Source of the DNA: Bacteroidia bacterium
GTDB lineage: Bacteria; Bacteroidota; Bacteroidia; M30B66
Length of the DNA: 64,000 bases
NCBI GenBank assembly: GCA_965279035.1
Contig: OZ257142.1
Location: 3,904,001 to 3,968,000 of the forward strand
Reading direction: 5' to 3'
Under the pieces are notes generated by a model, which worked only from the letters and a program-made list of their open reading frames with translations, ran no database searches and was not told the origin of the DNA. Position 1 is the stretch's first letter; each line of letters begins with the position of its first letter. Below, in pieces: positions 5,274 through 48,187 of this stretch. A program made the translations under genes and the position numbers.

Positions 5274-5535
5274 CCTCGGACTAAAGTCCGAGGCTACTAG
5301 AACCAAAATCTCAAATTCTAGTTCTCATTGACATCCTCTTCTGCAAAATACCAATCTGCATCCTCGGACTTCAGTCCGAGGCTACTAGAACTAAAATCTC
5401 AAATTCTAGTTCTCATTGACCTCCTCTTCTGCAAAATACCAATCTGCATCCTCGTACTTCAGACCGAGGCCCCGAGGCCCTGAGTAGTCTACTACAAATT
5501 TCAAATATTCAGCACCCTCGGACTTCAGTCCGAGG
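5274..5535 (-). repeat. Array of GTAG-type REP palindromes in 88-bp tandem units
   Basis: CCTCGGACT(AA/TC)AGTCCGAGG-type palindromes at 5274, 5362, 5450 (degenerate) and 5516. The first two are followed by CTAC (GTAG on the minus strand). The first two spacers are near-identical. Confidence 0.85.
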
Positions 5536-5553: not shown

Positions 5554-6486
5554 TTACGTGTTTTTAGAGTTGCTATCCGTTTTTACGATATGCATCAACT
5601 GACGAAAATTCTTCTCCATTCCATCTGGAGAACCATCCAAGAAAATCGCATTTCCTTTTCCATTTTCTGCAAAATGCTTGATCGCTTCTGTCCACATCGT
5701 AAATAAAATCACCGATGTATCCATATCAGCTTGCTGCATTTCCTTCGCGGCTAAACTCATCCCCTTGGCCACCTCTTCACGGAAAAGTGCGACACCTTGT
5801 CCGCGTAATTGTGCCGCTTGACGTTCTGCTTCAGCTGCAATTTTAATCGCGTTTCCTTCGGCTTCGGCTGCTTTGGTTTTGGTGATCAATAATGCTTGTC
5901 CTTCGTTTTCGGCTGCTGCTTTTAAGTTATTCGAAGCCACCACTTGCGACATCGATTTCATAATCACATCATCAAACGTAATATCATTCAACTGTAAATC
6001 GATCAGGTGATACCCCCAACTTTCGAGTGTTTGGTCAATTTGATCTTTCACGTCAGAAACAATTTCACCACGTAAAACCAAGACCTCACTCTGCTTCTTA
6101 TTCGCCACAAAAGCCCGAATCGAGCCTTCTACCGTGCGAATTAATGCTTGCATCAAGTTGCGCTCATCAATGAATTTAAATGCTACATTTTTGATTGTTT
6201 CTTCATCCGGATTCACCACAGCAAAAAGCAACATCGCCTTGAAATATACATTCGCCTGATCTACCGTCACCGCCTGAAATTCCAGTTCCACCGAACGATT
6301 TTGTATAGAAACACGCTTGTATATCTGCTCCACAAAAGGCACCTTAAAATTCAGTCCCGGACGCATCATCCGTTTGTATTTACCAAATATGGTGGTTACC
6401 GCAATGGTTCCCTGCTGAACAGTTGCAAAAGATGTAAAGACGAATAAAATCGCCAATACAAGAAGAATGATGGGAATGAGGTTCAT
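5554..6486 (-). CDS. SPFH/Band 7 (prohibitin/stomatin) domain membrane protein
   Basis: N-terminal TM, FGKY...PGLNFKVPFVE motif, coiled AEAE segment. Confidence 0.9.
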   Translation of the reverse strand: MNLIPIILLVLAILFVFTSFATVQQGTIAVTTIFGKYKRMMRPGLNFKVPFVEQIYKRVSIQNRSVELEFQAVTVDQANVYFKAMLLFAVVNPDEETIKNVAFKFIDERNLMQALIRTVEGSIRAFVANKKQSEVLVLRGEIVSDVKDQIDQTLESWGYHLIDLQLNDITFDDVIMKSMSQVVASNNLKAAAENEGQALLITKTKAAEAEGNAIKIAAEAERQAAQLRGQGVALFREEVAKGMSLAAKEMQQADMDTSVILFTMWTEAIKHFAENGKGNAIFLDGSPDGMEKNFRQLMHIVKTDSNSKNT

Positions 6487-6490
6487 GGTT

Positions 6491-6660
6491 AATGTGCTAG
6501 TGTGCTGGTGAATAATGTGCTGATGTGTTAGTGTGCTGATGATTAGTTTGATAGTGTGTTATAGTGCCGAGATTATGTGATGATGTGCTGATGTGCTGGT
6601 GATTAATTTGCAGTTGTGTTAGTGAGCTGATGAATTATTAAGTGATGTTTTGATGTTAAA
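6491..6660 (+). repeat. Degenerate 8-bp tandem repeat array (GATGTGCT type)
   Basis: Repeated ATGTGCTG/GTGTGCTG/ATGTGTTA units. Reverse-complement arrays lie at 6830-6884 and 8099-8182. Confidence 0.7.
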
Positions 6661-6892
6661 TCATGAAGAGATTTAAAGTGTGTAAGATATCAGATATACT
6701 GCTAATTCAAAAAGAAATTATTGGGTTTAGTTTATAATTAGAACTATTAATTAGTCATCAATTAAGATCTTTCAATAAAAATCATTTTTTACAAATTTCC
6801 ATTTCAATCGAATAAACGGCATTGCCTAATCATCAAATCAATTAATTAGCACTTCATTTCACATCCGCACATTTCCTAATCAGCCTTTAGAC

Positions 6893-6923
6893 TTGCACTA
6901 TTATTTTAGTTGAGATATCTTGA
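6893..6923 (+). promoter_or_regulatory. Putative Bacteroidota sigma-A promoter inside the IS left end
   Basis: TTG (6893-6895), 20-nt spacer, then TATCTTGA (6916-6923), close to the TAnnTTTG consensus. Confidence 0.5.
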
Positions 6924-6929
6924 CTGAAA

Positions 6930-7082
6930 ATAAACAAAGAAACGGGGTGAACTATCTCATCAGCTAGGTCTTTAAATCCCTAAGGTGTGTATGAGTCCCC
7001 GTTTCCTTTAACCATGTTGTTAATGGCCAGCTAGAATTTTAGACTTCGAGATCTATTAAAGGTTTTAGCCAAGAGCAACACT
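6930..7082 (+). ncRNA. IS110 bridge RNA (target-binding loop and donor-binding loop)
   Basis: Stem GAAACGGGG/CCCCGTTTC encloses ATCAGC and GGTGTG, which match the target. Stem TGTTG..TGGC/GCCA..CAACA encloses CTAGAAT and TAAAGGT, which match the circle junction. RNA ends are approximate. Confidence 0.8.
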
Positions 7083-7095
7083 TAAAAACAAAAGT

Positions 7096-8076
7096 ATGAA
7101 GAAGAACTTTATTGGCATTGATGTGTCAAAATTAACGCTGGATGTTTATTTACATAATCAATCTCAGCACAACGTCTTTAGCAATGATATCGATGGTTAT
7201 ACACTGATGCTTGCTTGGTTAAAGCAGTTGAAAGTGAGTGTAAAATCGATGGCCATTTGCTTTGAGCATACGGGTATTTATAGCGAGGATTTATCTGTGT
7301 TTTTGAGTGAAAAGAAGATCTGTTTTTACATGGAATCCTCCTTAAACATTAAGTATTCTATTGGACTTCAGCGAGGCAAAAATGATAAGATAGACTCCCA
7401 AAGAATCGCAAATTTCATTGCATTACATGCAGAACAGCTTAGCCCAACGGTACTATCAAAGAGTGCTGTAGCGCAGCTGAGAAAGCTCTTGAGTATGCGT
7501 TCGCATCTGGAAAAAGAGAAGATAGGCATCAAAAACAGACTTAAGAACTCATCAAAAACCACTGGTGTAGATATAGTTTTTCAAATCGAAACGGATCTGT
7601 TAAAGACCTTTAACGATAAACTTAAACTGGTAGAAGAGGAAATCAAATCATTGATAAAGTCAGATGATAATCTTCGTCAAATCGACGAATTAGTTCAATC
7701 TATAAAAGGAGTTGGACCAGTGTCGAGTTGGTATTTAATCGCCACAACAAATGGCTTTGAATACTTCGACAATGCTCGTCAATATGCATGTTATAGTGGA
7801 ATAGCTCCATTCGAAAAATCATCAGGAACATCCATAAAAGGGAAAACACAAACCGATAGAAGATCAAATCGAAAAATCAATGGAGTATTAACAATGGCGG
7901 CGCGTTCGGCAGTATTAAATAACACCGAAATGAGAGAATATATGGAGCGTAAAATCCAGGAAGGAAAACATTATAATTGTGCACTCAATGCAGTCAAAAA
8001 CAAACTTGTATCAAGAGTATTTGCTGTCGTAAAAAGAAAAACACCCTATGTTGATCTAAAAAAATACGCTGCATAG
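7096..8076 (+). CDS. IS110 family transposase/recombinase
   Basis: DEDD RuvC-like motifs IGIDVSK, FEHTG and KNDKIDS. C-terminal Tnp domain SIKGVG...YACYSGIAP...SSGTS with the catalytic Ser. Confidence 0.95.
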   Translation: MKKNFIGIDVSKLTLDVYLHNQSQHNVFSNDIDGYTLMLAWLKQLKVSVKSMAICFEHTGIYSEDLSVFLSEKKICFYMESSLNIKYSIGLQRGKNDKIDSQRIANFIALHAEQLSPTVLSKSAVAQLRKLLSMRSHLEKEKIGIKNRLKNSSKTTGVDIVFQIETDLLKTFNDKLKLVEEEIKSLIKSDDNLRQIDELVQSIKGVGPVSSWYLIATTNGFEYFDNARQYACYSGIAPFEKSSGTSIKGKTQTDRRSNRKINGVLTMAARSAVLNNTEMREYMERKIQEGKHYNCALNAVKNKLVSRVFAVVKRKTPYVDLKKYAA

Positions 8077-8098
8077 ACTTGCATAAGTCCTAGAATAC

Positions 8099-8182
8099 AC
8101 ACCATCACATCAACTAATAAGCACATCTTCTAATAAGCACATCAGCTCATCAACTATCCGATAGCTATCGGATCAGCACACT
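8099..8182 (-). repeat. Degenerate octamer array with embedded CCGATAGCTATCGG palindrome
   Basis: AGCACATC-type units. Palindrome ATCCGATAGCTATCGGAT at 8156-8173. Confidence 0.65.
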
Positions 8183-9626
8183 AGCTAATTTTCAAACACA
8201 CATTCTTCGCCTCCGTAAAAAATCGCAAGGCTTCCCATCCGCCTTCGCGCCCTACTCCACTCTGTTTTACGCCGCCAAAGGGTGTTCTTAAATCACGCAA
8301 CATCCAACAGTTTACCCAAACAATTCCAGTTTTTAATTGTGATGCGATTCGATGTGCTCGAGTAACATGATTTGTCCAAACCGAAAAGGCAAGTCCATAC
8401 GATGTGCTATTGGCAAATTCAACGGCTTCTTCTTCGGAGTCAAATGGCATCAAAGTGACAACCGGACCAAAAATTTCTTCTTGATTGCAACGGGCTTGAG
8501 CATTTAATCCTTCAATGACAGTTGGTTCTATAAAAAACCCAGATGCATTTTCACCTTCCGGATAAATTCGATTTCCTCCACTTAAAATACTTCCGCCTTC
8601 ATCACGAGCCAGCTGAATATAGGATAGTACTTTTTCCATGTGTTGTTCTGATACGACCGATCCCATATCAGATTGAGCATCCATTGGATTTCCTACACGT
8701 AATTGCTTTACTCTTTCTATAAATGCGACTTTAAATTGAGTGTAAATACTTCGTTCAATCAAAATGCGCGATCCACACAAACATATCTGTCCTTGGTTCG
8801 AAAATGCAGCTCTTACAGCTTCCTTTACGGTATGTTCGAAATCGCAATCTGCAAATATCAAGGTGGCATTTTTACCTCCTAATTCAAGTGATAGTTTTTT
8901 AAACTGAGGTGCAGCAACGCGCGCTATTTCGGCACCTGTGCGGGTTCCACCTGTAAACGAAATGGCTAAAACATCTGGATGAGCTACCATCGCAGCACCG
9001 ACATCCGGTCCTAAACCATGCAACACATTGAGTACTCCTGCCGGAAATCCTGCTTCAATGCACAGTTTTGAAAATAAATAGGCTGTCATCGGTGTAATTT
9101 CCGAAGGCTTTGCAACTACTGTATTTCCGCTTGCTAATGCCGGTGCAATCTTCCAAGTAAATAAATACAATGGTAAATTCCAGGGCGAAATGCATGCTAC
9201 AACACCAAAAGCTTGACGAAGTGTATAATTGATTGCAACATCATCGGTCGCATGCGCTTCGGTACTTGTGTGTAAAATAGCCGTAGCAAAAAACCGAATG
9301 TTGGCTATTGCTCTAGGAATATCAACACTTCTGGCTACATGCAAAGGCTTTCCAGAATCAATGCTTTCGGCTAATGCCAAGGCTTCAAGATCACGCTCCA
9401 TGAGATTTGCTAGATGAATCATGTTCAGCGAGCGTTGATTCGCTTTAAGTGAGGACCAAGATGGATAAGCCAGTTTTGCTGCTTTAATAGCTTCATTCAC
9501 ATCCTCCACATTAGAAGCCGGTAGTTGACTATATACTTTTCCTGTAGCTGGATTAGTATTGTTGAGCCAGTTTGAATGTTGGGGCTCACAAAGTTTTCCT
9601 TGGATATAATTGAGAATTTGAAGCAT
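8181..9626 (-). CDS. Aldehyde dehydrogenase (2-aminomuconate/2-hydroxymuconate semialdehyde dehydrogenase-like)
   Basis: ISPWNLP, SFTGGT, LELGGKN, catalytic GQICLC, EEIFGPV and WVNCWMLRDLRTPFGGVKQSG motifs. Confidence 0.9.
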   Translation of the reverse strand: MLQILNYIQGKLCEPQHSNWLNNTNPATGKVYSQLPASNVEDVNEAIKAAKLAYPSWSSLKANQRSLNMIHLANLMERDLEALALAESIDSGKPLHVARSVDIPRAIANIRFFATAILHTSTEAHATDDVAINYTLRQAFGVVACISPWNLPLYLFTWKIAPALASGNTVVAKPSEITPMTAYLFSKLCIEAGFPAGVLNVLHGLGPDVGAAMVAHPDVLAISFTGGTRTGAEIARVAAPQFKKLSLELGGKNATLIFADCDFEHTVKEAVRAAFSNQGQICLCGSRILIERSIYTQFKVAFIERVKQLRVGNPMDAQSDMGSVVSEQHMEKVLSYIQLARDEGGSILSGGNRIYPEGENASGFFIEPTVIEGLNAQARCNQEEIFGPVVTLMPFDSEEEAVEFANSTSYGLAFSVWTNHVTRAHRIASQLKTGIVWVNCWMLRDLRTPFGGVKQSGVGREGGWEALRFFTEAKNVCLKIS

Positions 9627-34646: not shown

Positions 34647-35316
34647 ATTTGTATCCTACTCCTTTAATGGTACGAATGTATGTATCTCCAAGTTTTTCTC
34701 GAAGTTTTCGGATATGAACATCAATTGTACGATCACCTACAACTACATCATCTCCCCACACATTTTTTAAAATATCTTCTCTGGTAAAGACTTTCCCAGG
34801 TCGAGAAGCTAATAATGCTATCAACTCAAACTCTTTTTTTGGAAGATTGATTTGAACATTGTCTTTCACAATCAAGTATTTCTCCCGATCAATCATAAAC
34901 CCATTCACATCCAATACTTCCTCTTCCTGATTGTTACCTTTTCTACGCAATAGTGCTTTCACCCTTGAAACTAAAACACGTGGCTTGATTGGCTTATTGA
35001 TATAATCATCAGCACCTGCATCAAATCCAGCAATCTGAGAATAATCTTCGTTACGCGCTGTCAAGAAAGCAATAAGCACATCCTTTAATTCTGGAATTTC
35101 ACGAATGACGCGACAGGTTTCAATACCATCCAAATCGGGCATCATCACATCCAAAATAATCAACTGTGGTCTTTCTTGTTGAGCCAATCGTATCGCATCT
35201 TTCCCATTCCCACTCGTGAATACATCAAATCCTTCTTTTGTCAAATTGTAGCTAATGAATTCCAGAATATCCGGTTCATCATCTACAAGCAAGATTTTTA
35301 TTTTCTCTGCACTCAT
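34636..35316 (-). CDS. OmpR/PhoB family response regulator
   Basis: LVDDE, LDVMMP, GADDY and RTIDVHIRKLREK motifs. Confidence 0.95.
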   Translation of the reverse strand: MSAEKIKILLVDDEPDILEFISYNLTKEGFDVFTSGNGKDAIRLAQQERPQLIILDVMMPDLDGIETCRVIREIPELKDVLIAFLTARNEDYSQIAGFDAGADDYINKPIKPRVLVSRVKALLRRKGNNQEEEVLDVNGFMIDREKYLIVKDNVQINLPKKEFELIALLASRPGKVFTREDILKNVWGDDVVVGDRTIDVHIRKLREKLGDTYIRTIKGVGYKFEF

Positions 35317-41653: not shown

Positions 41654-41790
41654 CGCTTCGACAAGCTCAGCGCGCAGCATCAGCCAAGCTGATAAGATCC
41701 GATATCATTCACGCTCCCTGAGCCTGTCGAAGGGAGCACATCTCCCGATAACTATCAGGAACACCAGCACATCATCTAATCAGCACATCA
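41654..41790. repeat. REPIN-like element (inverted CTTCGACAAGCTCAG repeats) plus octamer tail, copy 1
   Basis: CTTCGACAAGCTCAG at 41656-41670 and CTGAGCCTGTCGAAG at 41718-41732. Near-identical inverted copy near 48070-48180. Confidence 0.85.
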
Positions 41791-47249: not shown

Positions 47250-48008
47250 ATGGAAACAATACACACAGAGATTCGAAATTCCATTGCTATTATTCGCTTA
47301 AATCGTGGAAAAGCCAATGCCATTAATGCAACAATGGCCAATGAACTTTTAGACACTTTGCTCGAGATGAAAGCCAATGAGCAAGTTCGCGGAGTATTAT
47401 TAACTGGACATGGCGAATTTTTTTCGGCAGGATTGGATGTGATTGAGCTCTATCATTACAACGAAAGTGAAATCATTGATTTTTGGAAAGTGTTTGATCG
47501 ACTCATACGTCGCTTGGTTTCATTTCCAAAACCGTTGGTAGCTGCCATTACTGGGCATTGTCCGGCTGGTGGATGTATTTTAGCCTTAGGTTGTGATTAC
47601 CGGGTGATGGCCGAAGGAAAATACCGGATCGGTTTGAATGAAATCCCTTTGGGAATTGTAGTTCCTGAAACGATTTATCATTTATACAGTTTTGTTTTAG
47701 GTCGTGGAAGAGCGTATCAAAGCTTATTAGAAGGAAAACTTCATACTCCTGAAGAAGCACGATCTATACAATTGGTTAATGAAATTTGTCCGCTAGAAGA
47801 TGTGGAAACTCAAGGCTTGAAGCAGCTTGAAAAATATCTTCAACTAAGCACTGCCGTTTGGGCACAGAGCAAATTGAATTTCCGAAATGCCATTCTACAA
47901 AAACTGACATCCGATTTTAAGACTTCATTTGAGCCAACACTCAAACAATGGTGGGCACCCGAAACACGCGCTATTTTAGGGAAGATGATTGAAGGATTGA
48001 AAAAATGA
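47250..48008 (+). CDS. Enoyl-CoA hydratase/isomerase family protein
   Basis: LNRGKANAI, FSAGLD, GHCPAGG and IGLNE motifs. Confidence 0.93.
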   Translation: METIHTEIRNSIAIIRLNRGKANAINATMANELLDTLLEMKANEQVRGVLLTGHGEFFSAGLDVIELYHYNESEIIDFWKVFDRLIRRLVSFPKPLVAAITGHCPAGGCILALGCDYRVMAEGKYRIGLNEIPLGIVVPETIYHLYSFVLGRGRAYQSLLEGKLHTPEEARSIQLVNEICPLEDVETQGLKQLEKYLQLSTAVWAQSKLNFRNAILQKLTSDFKTSFEPTLKQWWAPETRAILGKMIEGLKK

Positions 48009-48187
48009 TGTGCTGGTGTGTTGATGTGCTGGTGTGCTAATTTGGAAATGTGCTCATGTGCTGGTTATCTCGATAGTTATCGTGAGATGTGCTCCCTTCG
48101 ACAAGCTCAGGGAGCGTGAATGATATCGTTCGATGAACTTATCAGCTTGGCTGATGCTGCGCACTGAGCTTGTCGAAGCGTGCTGAT
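48007..48187. repeat. Octamer array plus REPIN-like element, copy 2
   Basis: GATGTGCT/GGTGTGCT units at 48007-48065; CTTCGACAAGCTCAG at 48096-48110 and CTGAGCTTGTCGAAG at 48164-48178. Confidence 0.85.

Follow-up and report, generated by a model that had tools for sequence, protein, structure and literature searches.

The DNA analysed here, called the window throughout, is a stretch of 64,000 nucleotides (nt) from a Bacteroidia bacterium (assembly GCA_965279035.1, contig OZ257142.1, positions 3,904,001 to 3,968,000 of the forward strand). It carries an insertion sequence of the IS110 family, 1214 bp long (6885-8098, forward strand), in which a left end of 211 bp (6885-7095) and a right end of 22 bp (8077-8098) enclose a single recombinase gene, as is the layout in the IS110 group. 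We consider it very probable that this is an intact and probably still mobile bridge-RNA element of the IS110 group which works like IS621. An initial annotation, made from the letters of the sequence, had described the element, its ends and the guide segments in its left end, and every coordinate and string given there was confirmed in the sequence. Features of the element are collected in Table 1.

Table 1. Features of the insertion sequence and its junctions (window coordinates).
Feature	Position	Strand	Remarks
Left target half-site, positions 1-9, ending in core C	6876-6884	+	8/9 identical to guide 6956-6964
Insertion sequence	6885-8098	+	core C assignable to either end, 6884 or 8098
Right donor half-site, positions 10-14, CTTTA	6885-6889	+	with core C complementary to 7057-7062
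TAGACTTG, putative -7-like element	6888-6895	+	TAnn[TC]TTG at this offset in 14/25 loci
Sub-terminal inverted repeat, left arm GACTT	6890-6894	+	partner AAGTC 8085-8089; flanks the 14-nt donor site exactly
Target-binding loop domain	6938-7006	+	basal stem 6938-6947/6997-7006; fold and covariation
Target-loop inner parts	6951-6996	+	3-bp extension 6951-6953/6994-6996; distal hairpin TAGG/CCTA 6965-6968/6979-6982
Left target guide, 9 nt, same as target positions 1-9	6956-6964	+	would pair with bottom strand
Right target guide, 6 nt	6984-6989	+	pairs top-strand positions 14-9; last G with core C
Target-loop handshake guide UAU	6990-6992	+	complementary to donor positions 8, 7, 6 (A, T, A)
Donor-binding loop domain	7017-7078	+	basal stem 7017-7021/7074-7078; two extra pairs in the window extend it to 7015-7080
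Donor-loop inner parts	7024-7071	+	inner stem 7024-7027/7068-7071; distal hairpin TAGA/TCTA 7040-7043/7052-7055
Left donor guide	7031-7039	+	1-7 (CUAGAAU) match donor; 8-9 (UU) unlike donor A8, C9
Right donor guide UAAAGG (7057-7062) and handshake positions UUU (7063-7065)	7057-7065	+	pairs donor positions 14-9
Recombinase gene, 326 aa, DEDD (RuvC-like) and Tnp domains	7096-8076	+	Pfam and PDB matches
CTTG, putative -33-like element	8078-8081	+	right end
Sub-terminal inverted repeat, right arm AAGTC	8085-8089	+	also pairs GACTT 8077-8081
Left donor half-site, positions 1-8 (CTAGAATA), and core C	8090-8098	+	positions 1-7 identical to guide 7031-7037
Core C and right target half-site, positions 9-14, CACACC	8098-8103	+	6/6 Watson-Crick with guide 6984-6989

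The recombinase gene is the only long open reading frame inside the element and is open over its full length. Its product matches PF01548 at residues 6-151 (E 2.5e-16; 60.3 bits, cut-off 29) and PF02371 at residues 198-283 (E 2.2e-18; 66.8 bits, cut-off 21.3), and the only solved structures matched are those of the ISCro4 transposase (PDB 9t56, E 1.6e-25) and the IS621 transposase (PDB 8wt6, E 1.5e-22 over 315 residues). The residues D9, E57, D97, D100 and S243 are aligned opposite D11, E60, D102, D105 and S241 of IS621, whose chain numbering is offset by 2 in the alignment. Mutation of these five IS621 residues is described as abolishing recombination in the available text of PMC11208158. Both domains, the two structural matches and the aligned catalytic residues place the protein in the IS110 family, as had been proposed from the sequence. 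The accompanying description of the protein as compact was dropped because 326 amino acids (aa) is a normal size and the solved IS621 chain has 328 residues.

At the left junction, AATCAGC is followed by CTTTAGAC, with C at 6884/6885, and at the right junction CCTAGAATAC, ending in the C at 8098, is followed by ACACC. The termini of the element, CCTTTAG at the left and CTAGAATAC at the right, are not inverted repeats and the flanks have only C in common. Neither long terminal inverted repeats nor a target-site duplication are present, as expected for IS110. Removal of the element joins 11 nt from either side into a 22-nt sequence for which the window has unbroken repeat units in other places, one at 48025-48046 (minus strand) matching at 19 of 22 nt and three further independent ones matching at 17 of 22.

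Relatives were found by a scan of one genome per species and by a metagenome scan. The former yielded a full copy of 75% aa identity (L001), a right end only of 89% (L002) and two left ends in one metagenome-assembled genome (MAG); the latter yielded a full copy of 67% (L015) and a right end of 93% (L016). Searching the element DNA against the three genomes behind these loci gave four left ends and three right ends in the MAG G003. The similarity starts between C and CTTTAGACTTGCAC and stops between CCTAGAATA and C in all of these relatives, the flanks being unrelated (L001, L015, L002/L006, L016 and the G003 copies), and the targets of three full and seven partial copies each fit one motif class. 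The same end bases therefore recur in independent relatives within unrelated flanks, and no copy with other ends was seen among the relatives compared, which settles the extent of the element as 6885-8098. A direct repeat, TAGACTTGCA (6888-6897 and 8074-8083), was considered as a target-site duplication that would mark other ends, and was rejected because the right-hand copy is not preserved in L001 and L015 and 8098 is the end point of all copies.

Two stem-loop domains are present in the left end, upstream of the gene. The minimum-free-energy fold of 6925-7095 recovers both basal stems, the first of them formed by GAAACGGGG (6939-6947) and CCCCGTTTC (6997-7005), at -38.8 kcal/mol (z = -2.2, with 3 of 200 shuffles as stable), a fold energy which by itself is weak evidence for a structured RNA. 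Among five close sequences, five stem pairs of the donor domain change on both sides, for example UGGC/GCCA against GAAC/GUUC. A covariance model built from these five sequences was run on 30 loci of homologues (32-41% identical) taken from 400 Bacteroidia genomes and matched 25 of them at E <= 1e-3, in each case a short way upstream of the recombinase gene; L042, L045, L050, L051 and L052 gave no match at this threshold, and neither did any of nine distant homologues of 24-32% identity (L003 and L017-L024). When 37 rows are aligned by fitting to the model, which favours structure, 92.4% of the cells are paired as compared to 67.8% in shuffles, and changes on both sides are seen in 29 of the 30 pairs. 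The fold and the compensatory changes in independent copies agree with the layout of two guide-bearing loops described in the initial annotation, and the two domains with their internal loops have the appearance of a bridge RNA.

The covariance model also scores the minus strand of the window at 6900-7009 (26 bits) and four G003 loci (33-34 bits), which is probably an artefact of the self-complementary stem GGAAACGGGG/CCCCGTTTCC. In all, five reverse-strand matches of the model which overlap the target-loop stem, that at 6900-7009 among them, were treated as artefacts and left out of the tables.

For comparison of guides with sites, the numbering of IS621 was used, in which positions 1-7 are left, 8-9 core and 10-14 right; the common C is position 9. 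Loop positions were fixed by the covariance-model alignment and ends were placed by the donor guides. L037, L044 and L046, whose ends could not be placed by the donor guides (another donor-loop register, or the contig end), were left out of the counts, and one of the counted loci, L031, lies in an unpublished genome.

In the target loop of the window element, the left guide, which includes ATCAGC at 6959-6964, matches the left flank at 8 of 9 positions, and the right guide, GGTGTG at 6984-6989, pairs with the right flank at 6 of 6. The corresponding figures are 7/9 and 6/6 (with one G-T wobble) for L001 and 9/9 and 6/6 for L015, and these three copies lie in three different target sequences. 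Over all placeable loci, the right target guide pairs at five or more of six positions with its own right flank in 21 of 23 loci and in 50 of 506 swapped pairs; for the left guide, a match of 7/9 or more to its own left flank is found in 12 of 26 loci as compared to 9 of 650 swapped pairs. Leaving out L031, the counts are 20/22 for the right guide and 11/25 for the left. Even at 67-93% aa identity, close relatives differ in their target guides and occupy correspondingly different sites. The target-loop guides were thus correctly assigned from the sequence, and alignment of the homologous left ends reveals the predicted covariation of guide and flank. The word programmable, which had been used of the recombinase, overstates what appears to be a natural covariation of guides with sites.

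Two variants of the bridge RNA coexist in G003, one in L008 and L011 and the other in L009 and L012. Two bases, located in and beside the right target guide, distinguish the variants, AAGGTGTG and ATAGTGTG, and the same two-base variant (window 6983-6984) occurs in contigs of the public runs X5 and X6. The right flanks in G003 are CACATT twice and CACATC once; its contigs break inside the element and the left and right ends are unlinked.

The donor loop reads in the same manner, with TAAAGGT at 7057-7063. U7063 has donor A8 as a potential pairing partner and could form a wobble pair with target G8; the potential partner of U7064 is target A7, a base that every target in the close family of the window element retains. 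Since the guide segments of the donor loop are invariant in the close family, their covariation with the element ends rests on the distant relatives. Right donor variants among these are CATTTA, CTATTA, CCCTTA (twice), CTCTTA and ACTCTA (twice), and seven of eight variant right donor sequences are exactly complementary to their guide. Position 1 of the left guide equals donor position 1 in 25/25 loci, with three different bases. The left donor guide has U opposite the C core in 15 of the 25 and does not match at position 9, and in the available texts on IS621 (PMC11208160 and PMC11208158) the left donor guide likewise pairs with positions 1-8 only and not with 9. The donor-loop guides thus appear to covary with the element ends, in a test that is partly circular because the distant ends were placed by best match to the same donor guides. 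For L033, L032 and L047 there is independent agreement, the end of the left target guide falling on the same base as the donor-placed end. Identity and complementarity in the window, together with the covariation among distant relatives, support the donor guides as they had been assigned.

Two loci have element sequence at a junction. In L030 the 12 nt preceding the left junction repeat the right-end terminus of the element itself, and in L054 the right flank opens with the left-end start CTTTAG. Copies are either tandem or nested in these cases or inserted at sites matching the donor half alone; 'half-match' recombination is described in the available text of a preprint (10.64898/2026.08.31.748434).

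In the close family of the window element, donor and target have only the C of position 9 in common. Position 8 is G (window, L001 and four G003 left ends) or T (L015) in the targets, at the seven left junctions, and A at all eight right ends, and at position 10 the targets have A where the donor has C. A dinucleotide core CT at positions 8-9, as in IS621, is therefore not found, and the single C noted earlier as the shared core is well founded. The same C had been taken to set the core apart from the CT of IS621; this holds as far as only one base is in common, but a single C is by itself no proof of another mechanism, since the IS621 core has only one nearly invariant base, the second, and donor and target of IS621 differ already at bases 6-7. 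The core base is C in 22 loci and A in two (L047 and L049), in both of which the last base of the left target guide is A and that of the right target and right donor guides is U.

Behind the right target guide, the three handshake bases form 3/3 Watson-Crick pairs with the donor in 22 of 25 loci, and the first of them covaries with donor position 8 in all 25 (U:A 10, A:T 9 and C:G 6). In IS621, according to the available text of PMC11208158, the pairing of donor positions 7 and 6 that follows top-strand exchange involves bases 81-82. We read the handshake here as that of IS621 plus one base, with position 8 as the third base of the handshake. On the target side, position 8 varies together with the left target guide, as a programmable base would.

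We give about an even chance to the explanation that the mechanism and stagger of IS621 are unchanged, so that the single C is a difference in sequence identity only. Positions 8-9 would then be the crossover dinucleotide (RC; GC or TC in the targets, AC in the donor), with the mismatch at position 8 tolerated in the way that IS621 accepts a variable first core base. Published work on IS621, as far as its available text goes, is in keeping with this, as variation in the core is nearly confined to its first base and GT, AT and TT cores work, and the differing bases 6-7 of donor and target are handled by handshake pairing (PMC11208158). Among the relatives, position 8 is equal in donor and target in 13 of 24 loci, about twice the chance expectation of 25%, and a dinucleotide common to both may therefore be favoured though not required. 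The U behind the right target guide could moreover wobble with target G8 and pair with donor A8. Against this explanation, position 8 differs between all seven left junctions and all eight right ends in the close family, T8 of the L015 target cannot pair with that U before exchange, and target position 8 follows the left target guide as a programmable base does.

More tentatively, and in our judgement somewhat unlikely, there may exist a clade of Bacteroidia bridge recombinases, represented by this element, which need one common base, set by the RNA rather than by the protein. The observations that bear on this are the occurrence of C in 22 relatives and A in two, with all three core-reading guide bases changed accordingly, and the apparent use of position 8 for a third handshake pair. 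If true, the sequence at the crossover would be practically unconstrained, in contrast to IS621 and IS622 with their CT/NT core, and more sites would be addressable.

Taken as a bridge-RNA element of the IS621 type, the insertion sequence may work as follows. Transcription of the left end would yield a bridge RNA of about 150 nt, and of its two internal loops the first would read the target and the second the joined ends of the excised element, its left guide corresponding to donor positions 1-7 and its right guide to positions 9-14. A DEDD/Ser recombinase bound to both loops would swap strands beside the common C at position 9, and after the exchange the UAU behind the right target guide would pair with donor positions 8-6 in a handshake one base longer than that of IS621. 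The natural target would be the short motif ATCAG-C-ACAYY, which recurs in 8-nt periodic intergenic arrays of the genome, and promoter halves in the right end (-33) and the left end (-7) would be brought together only in the joined form. Transcription, a circular intermediate, the positions of cleavage and activity are what we infer from the guides and ends described above.

Several observations weigh against this interpretation. The left donor guide of the window element has no match at donor positions 8 and 9, and the donor covariation carries the partial circularity already mentioned. At a fixed register, the left target guide falls below 7/9 in 14 of 26 loci; some of these misses are register shifts of 1-2 nt (L043, L048 and L029), the match in L026 and L040 is displaced by 8-14 nt from the junction without explanation, and L029, L030 and L054 fail on the right side as well. 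Rfam gave 0 matches at E <= 1 in 6500-8500 on both strands, and of 24 public runs containing element sequence none is on record as RNA. The element strings have no second copy elsewhere in the 64-kb window: the left-end string occurs once even at up to 3 mismatches, and the right-end string has one exact occurrence besides nine looser, unrelated matches (10 found, 5.17 expected). Neither an empty site (a joint skipping 6885-8098) nor a circle joint (8098 joined to 6885) is present in the contigs of runs X1, X5, X6 and X7, although contigs drop rare forms and this is hence not evidence of absence.

In the left flanks of L026, L040 and L029 the guide-matching stretch lies 2-14 nt upstream of the junction rather than abutting it. 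Imprecise events, secondary changes or a different register are possible reasons. Position 8 at the left junction is the base of the donor in L028, L040 and L026.

Some of the same points would suit a window copy that is an immobile relic with genuine sequence features, namely the single copy in 64 kb, the lack of circle or empty-site contigs in the runs examined and the presence of near-perfect unoccupied target motifs at 8172-8180 and 6532-6540, within 100-400 bp. This we regard as improbable, as the reading frame is open with all catalytic residues present, the guides match both flanks and both ends, and public run X1 points the other way. X1 is probably the source sample and so not independent for sequence. 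In it the element forms a contig of its own covering 6881-8101 at a depth of 747.9, compared to 198.2 and 192.8 in the flanking contigs (about 3.8-fold), the element contig has no differing letters, and a second, different left flank is joined as a loose end at 6879. This indicates about four identical copies in X1 with the same few target bases before each, and hence recent movement. In runs X5, X6 and X7 the contigs give partial coverage of the element, and their identity to it is lower.

A reading of the left-end structure as a mere 5' leader regulating transposase expression, with guide matches arising by chance or as a by-product of repeats, could draw on the unremarkable fold energy (z = -2.2) and on the repetitive target DNA, which raises chance matches, but it is so improbable that we set it aside, being already contradicted by covariation counts in which guides change with unrelated flanks in L001, L015 and about 20 distant loci, swapped pairs fail, and handshake and core positions covary with the element ends.

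The surroundings of the bridge-RNA element are rich in its target. Allowing one mismatch, the window has 50 occurrences of the motif ATCAGCACA where 17.5 are expected, and 50 was attained in none of 100 shuffles. Matches cluster in 8-nt periodic intergenic arrays at 6492-6635, 8106-8180 and 48006-48063, and the flanks of relatives in other Bacteroidota contigs carry the same kind of 8-nt array. Like IS621, which inserts into repetitive extragenic palindromic (REP) elements, the element thus has a dispersed repeat as its landing site. Arrays are present at 35008-35149 and 41763-41787 too, and the 8-nt unit is close to CAGCACAT. They often lie directly upstream of a start codon, one of them ending at the ATG of the minus-strand gene 5554-6486.

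A short inverted repeat lies just inside both ends of the element. At its position, three or more contiguous complementary bases are found in 15 of 25 loci, in varied sequences such as AGTC/GACT, AACC/GGTT and ATC/GAT. A short sub-terminal inverted repeat flanking the donor in IS110-group elements is described in the available text of Durrant et al. (PMC11208160). Right behind the stop codon, window 8077-8090 (GACTTGCATAAGTC) can form a 5-bp hairpin, the 5' part of which belongs to the right-hand direct copy (8074-8083) of left-end sequence 6888-6897. The left half of this hairpin carries the -33-like CTTG, and L001 and L015 are without a full direct copy.

The two ends also carry candidate promoter halves. 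TAnn[TC]TTG lies in the left end of 14 of 25 loci, beginning 4 nt behind the core; [TC]TTG lies in the right end of 21 of 25, beginning 20-21 nt ahead of the core; and the spacing of the -33-like and -7-like motifs is exactly 20 nt in 13 of 25. The Bacteroidota promoter consensus is given as TANNTTTGY at -7 plus a -33 site in the available text of PMC12632263. By analogy with the split sigma-70 promoter of IS621, this suggests a promoter of Bacteroidota type which would be completed only in the joined right end-left end form. A sigma-70 promoter scan of 6800-8200 returned five promoter-like sites with 5.2 expected, none of them informative, and a terminator scan of the same range returned none.

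Compared to IS621 of E. coli, as characterised in the available texts of PMC11208160 and PMC11208158, the element is alike in protein architecture, catalytic residues and size (326 and 328 residues) and in an RNA encoded in the left end upstream of the gene, with two internal loops whose 5' sides would read the bottom strand and whose 3' sides the top strand. Both have a 9-nt left target guide, 14-nt sites, a left donor guide unpaired at position 9, handshake bases after the right target guide and a short sub-terminal inverted repeat flanking the donor; insertion into a repeated intergenic motif is common to both, and so, putatively, is a promoter split between the ends. The proteins are nevertheless only distantly related (by the match over 315 residues given above), one common C at position 9 takes the place of CT at 8-9, and position 8 would be a third handshake base. 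The right target guide has 6 nt rather than the 4 of IS621, the candidate split promoter fits the Bacteroidota -33/-7 pattern rather than sigma-70 -35/-10, and the core base is A in two relatives whose guides are changed to match.

ISCro4/IS622 of Citrobacter rodentium (Perry et al., 10.1101/2025.05.14.653916; PDB 9t56) is the best PDB match and shares the two-loop bridge RNA, the handshake guides and the 14-nt sites. According to the available part of that study it differs in a CT or GT core, a proteobacterial host and activity shown in human cells, the element described here being known from its sequence. The seekRNA of the IS1111 group (Siddiquee et al. 2024, PMC11187229) likewise works with a DEDD recombinase and, in the available text, has two short RNA segments, complementary one to each target strand and overlapping within the target. 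It lies in the right end, with sub-terminal repeats of 7-17 bp, unlike the left-end RNA and 5-bp repeat found here.

Mining of IS110 elements has yielded 86 covariance models for 32,190 bridge RNAs according to a preprint (10.64898/2026.10.21.760802), which treats the core as having a variable length c, and the core of IS621 and IS622 is a dinucleotide in the available literature. No explicit statement of a one-base core was found in the available text of the literature searched, of which the supplementary per-element core tables may already contain cases. Bridge-RNA elements of the IS110 group being known, the element would represent a modest variant of them with a one-base core, a three-base handshake and a Bacteroidota-type junction promoter.

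Bridge recombinases are under development as tools for RNA-programmed insertion, excision and inversion, and the characterised ones, IS621 and IS622/ISCro4, come from Proteobacteria and require a CT or NT dinucleotide in donor and target. The present element offers a readable native example from Bacteroidota, in which four guides, the handshake, the 14-nt sites, the flanking repeat and a candidate split promoter can be assigned from the letters alone. Relatives in nature already direct the same scaffold to three or more different sites, and the one-base core, with A in two relatives, points to a looser core requirement. For annotation, it accounts for a repeat-associated insertion, with the 8-nt intergenic arrays serving as landing sites.

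Elsewhere in the window, 5274-5470 holds a tandem repeat of 88 nt (2.2 copies, 94% identity), the unit of which opens with the palindrome CCTCGGACT..AGTCCGAGG.

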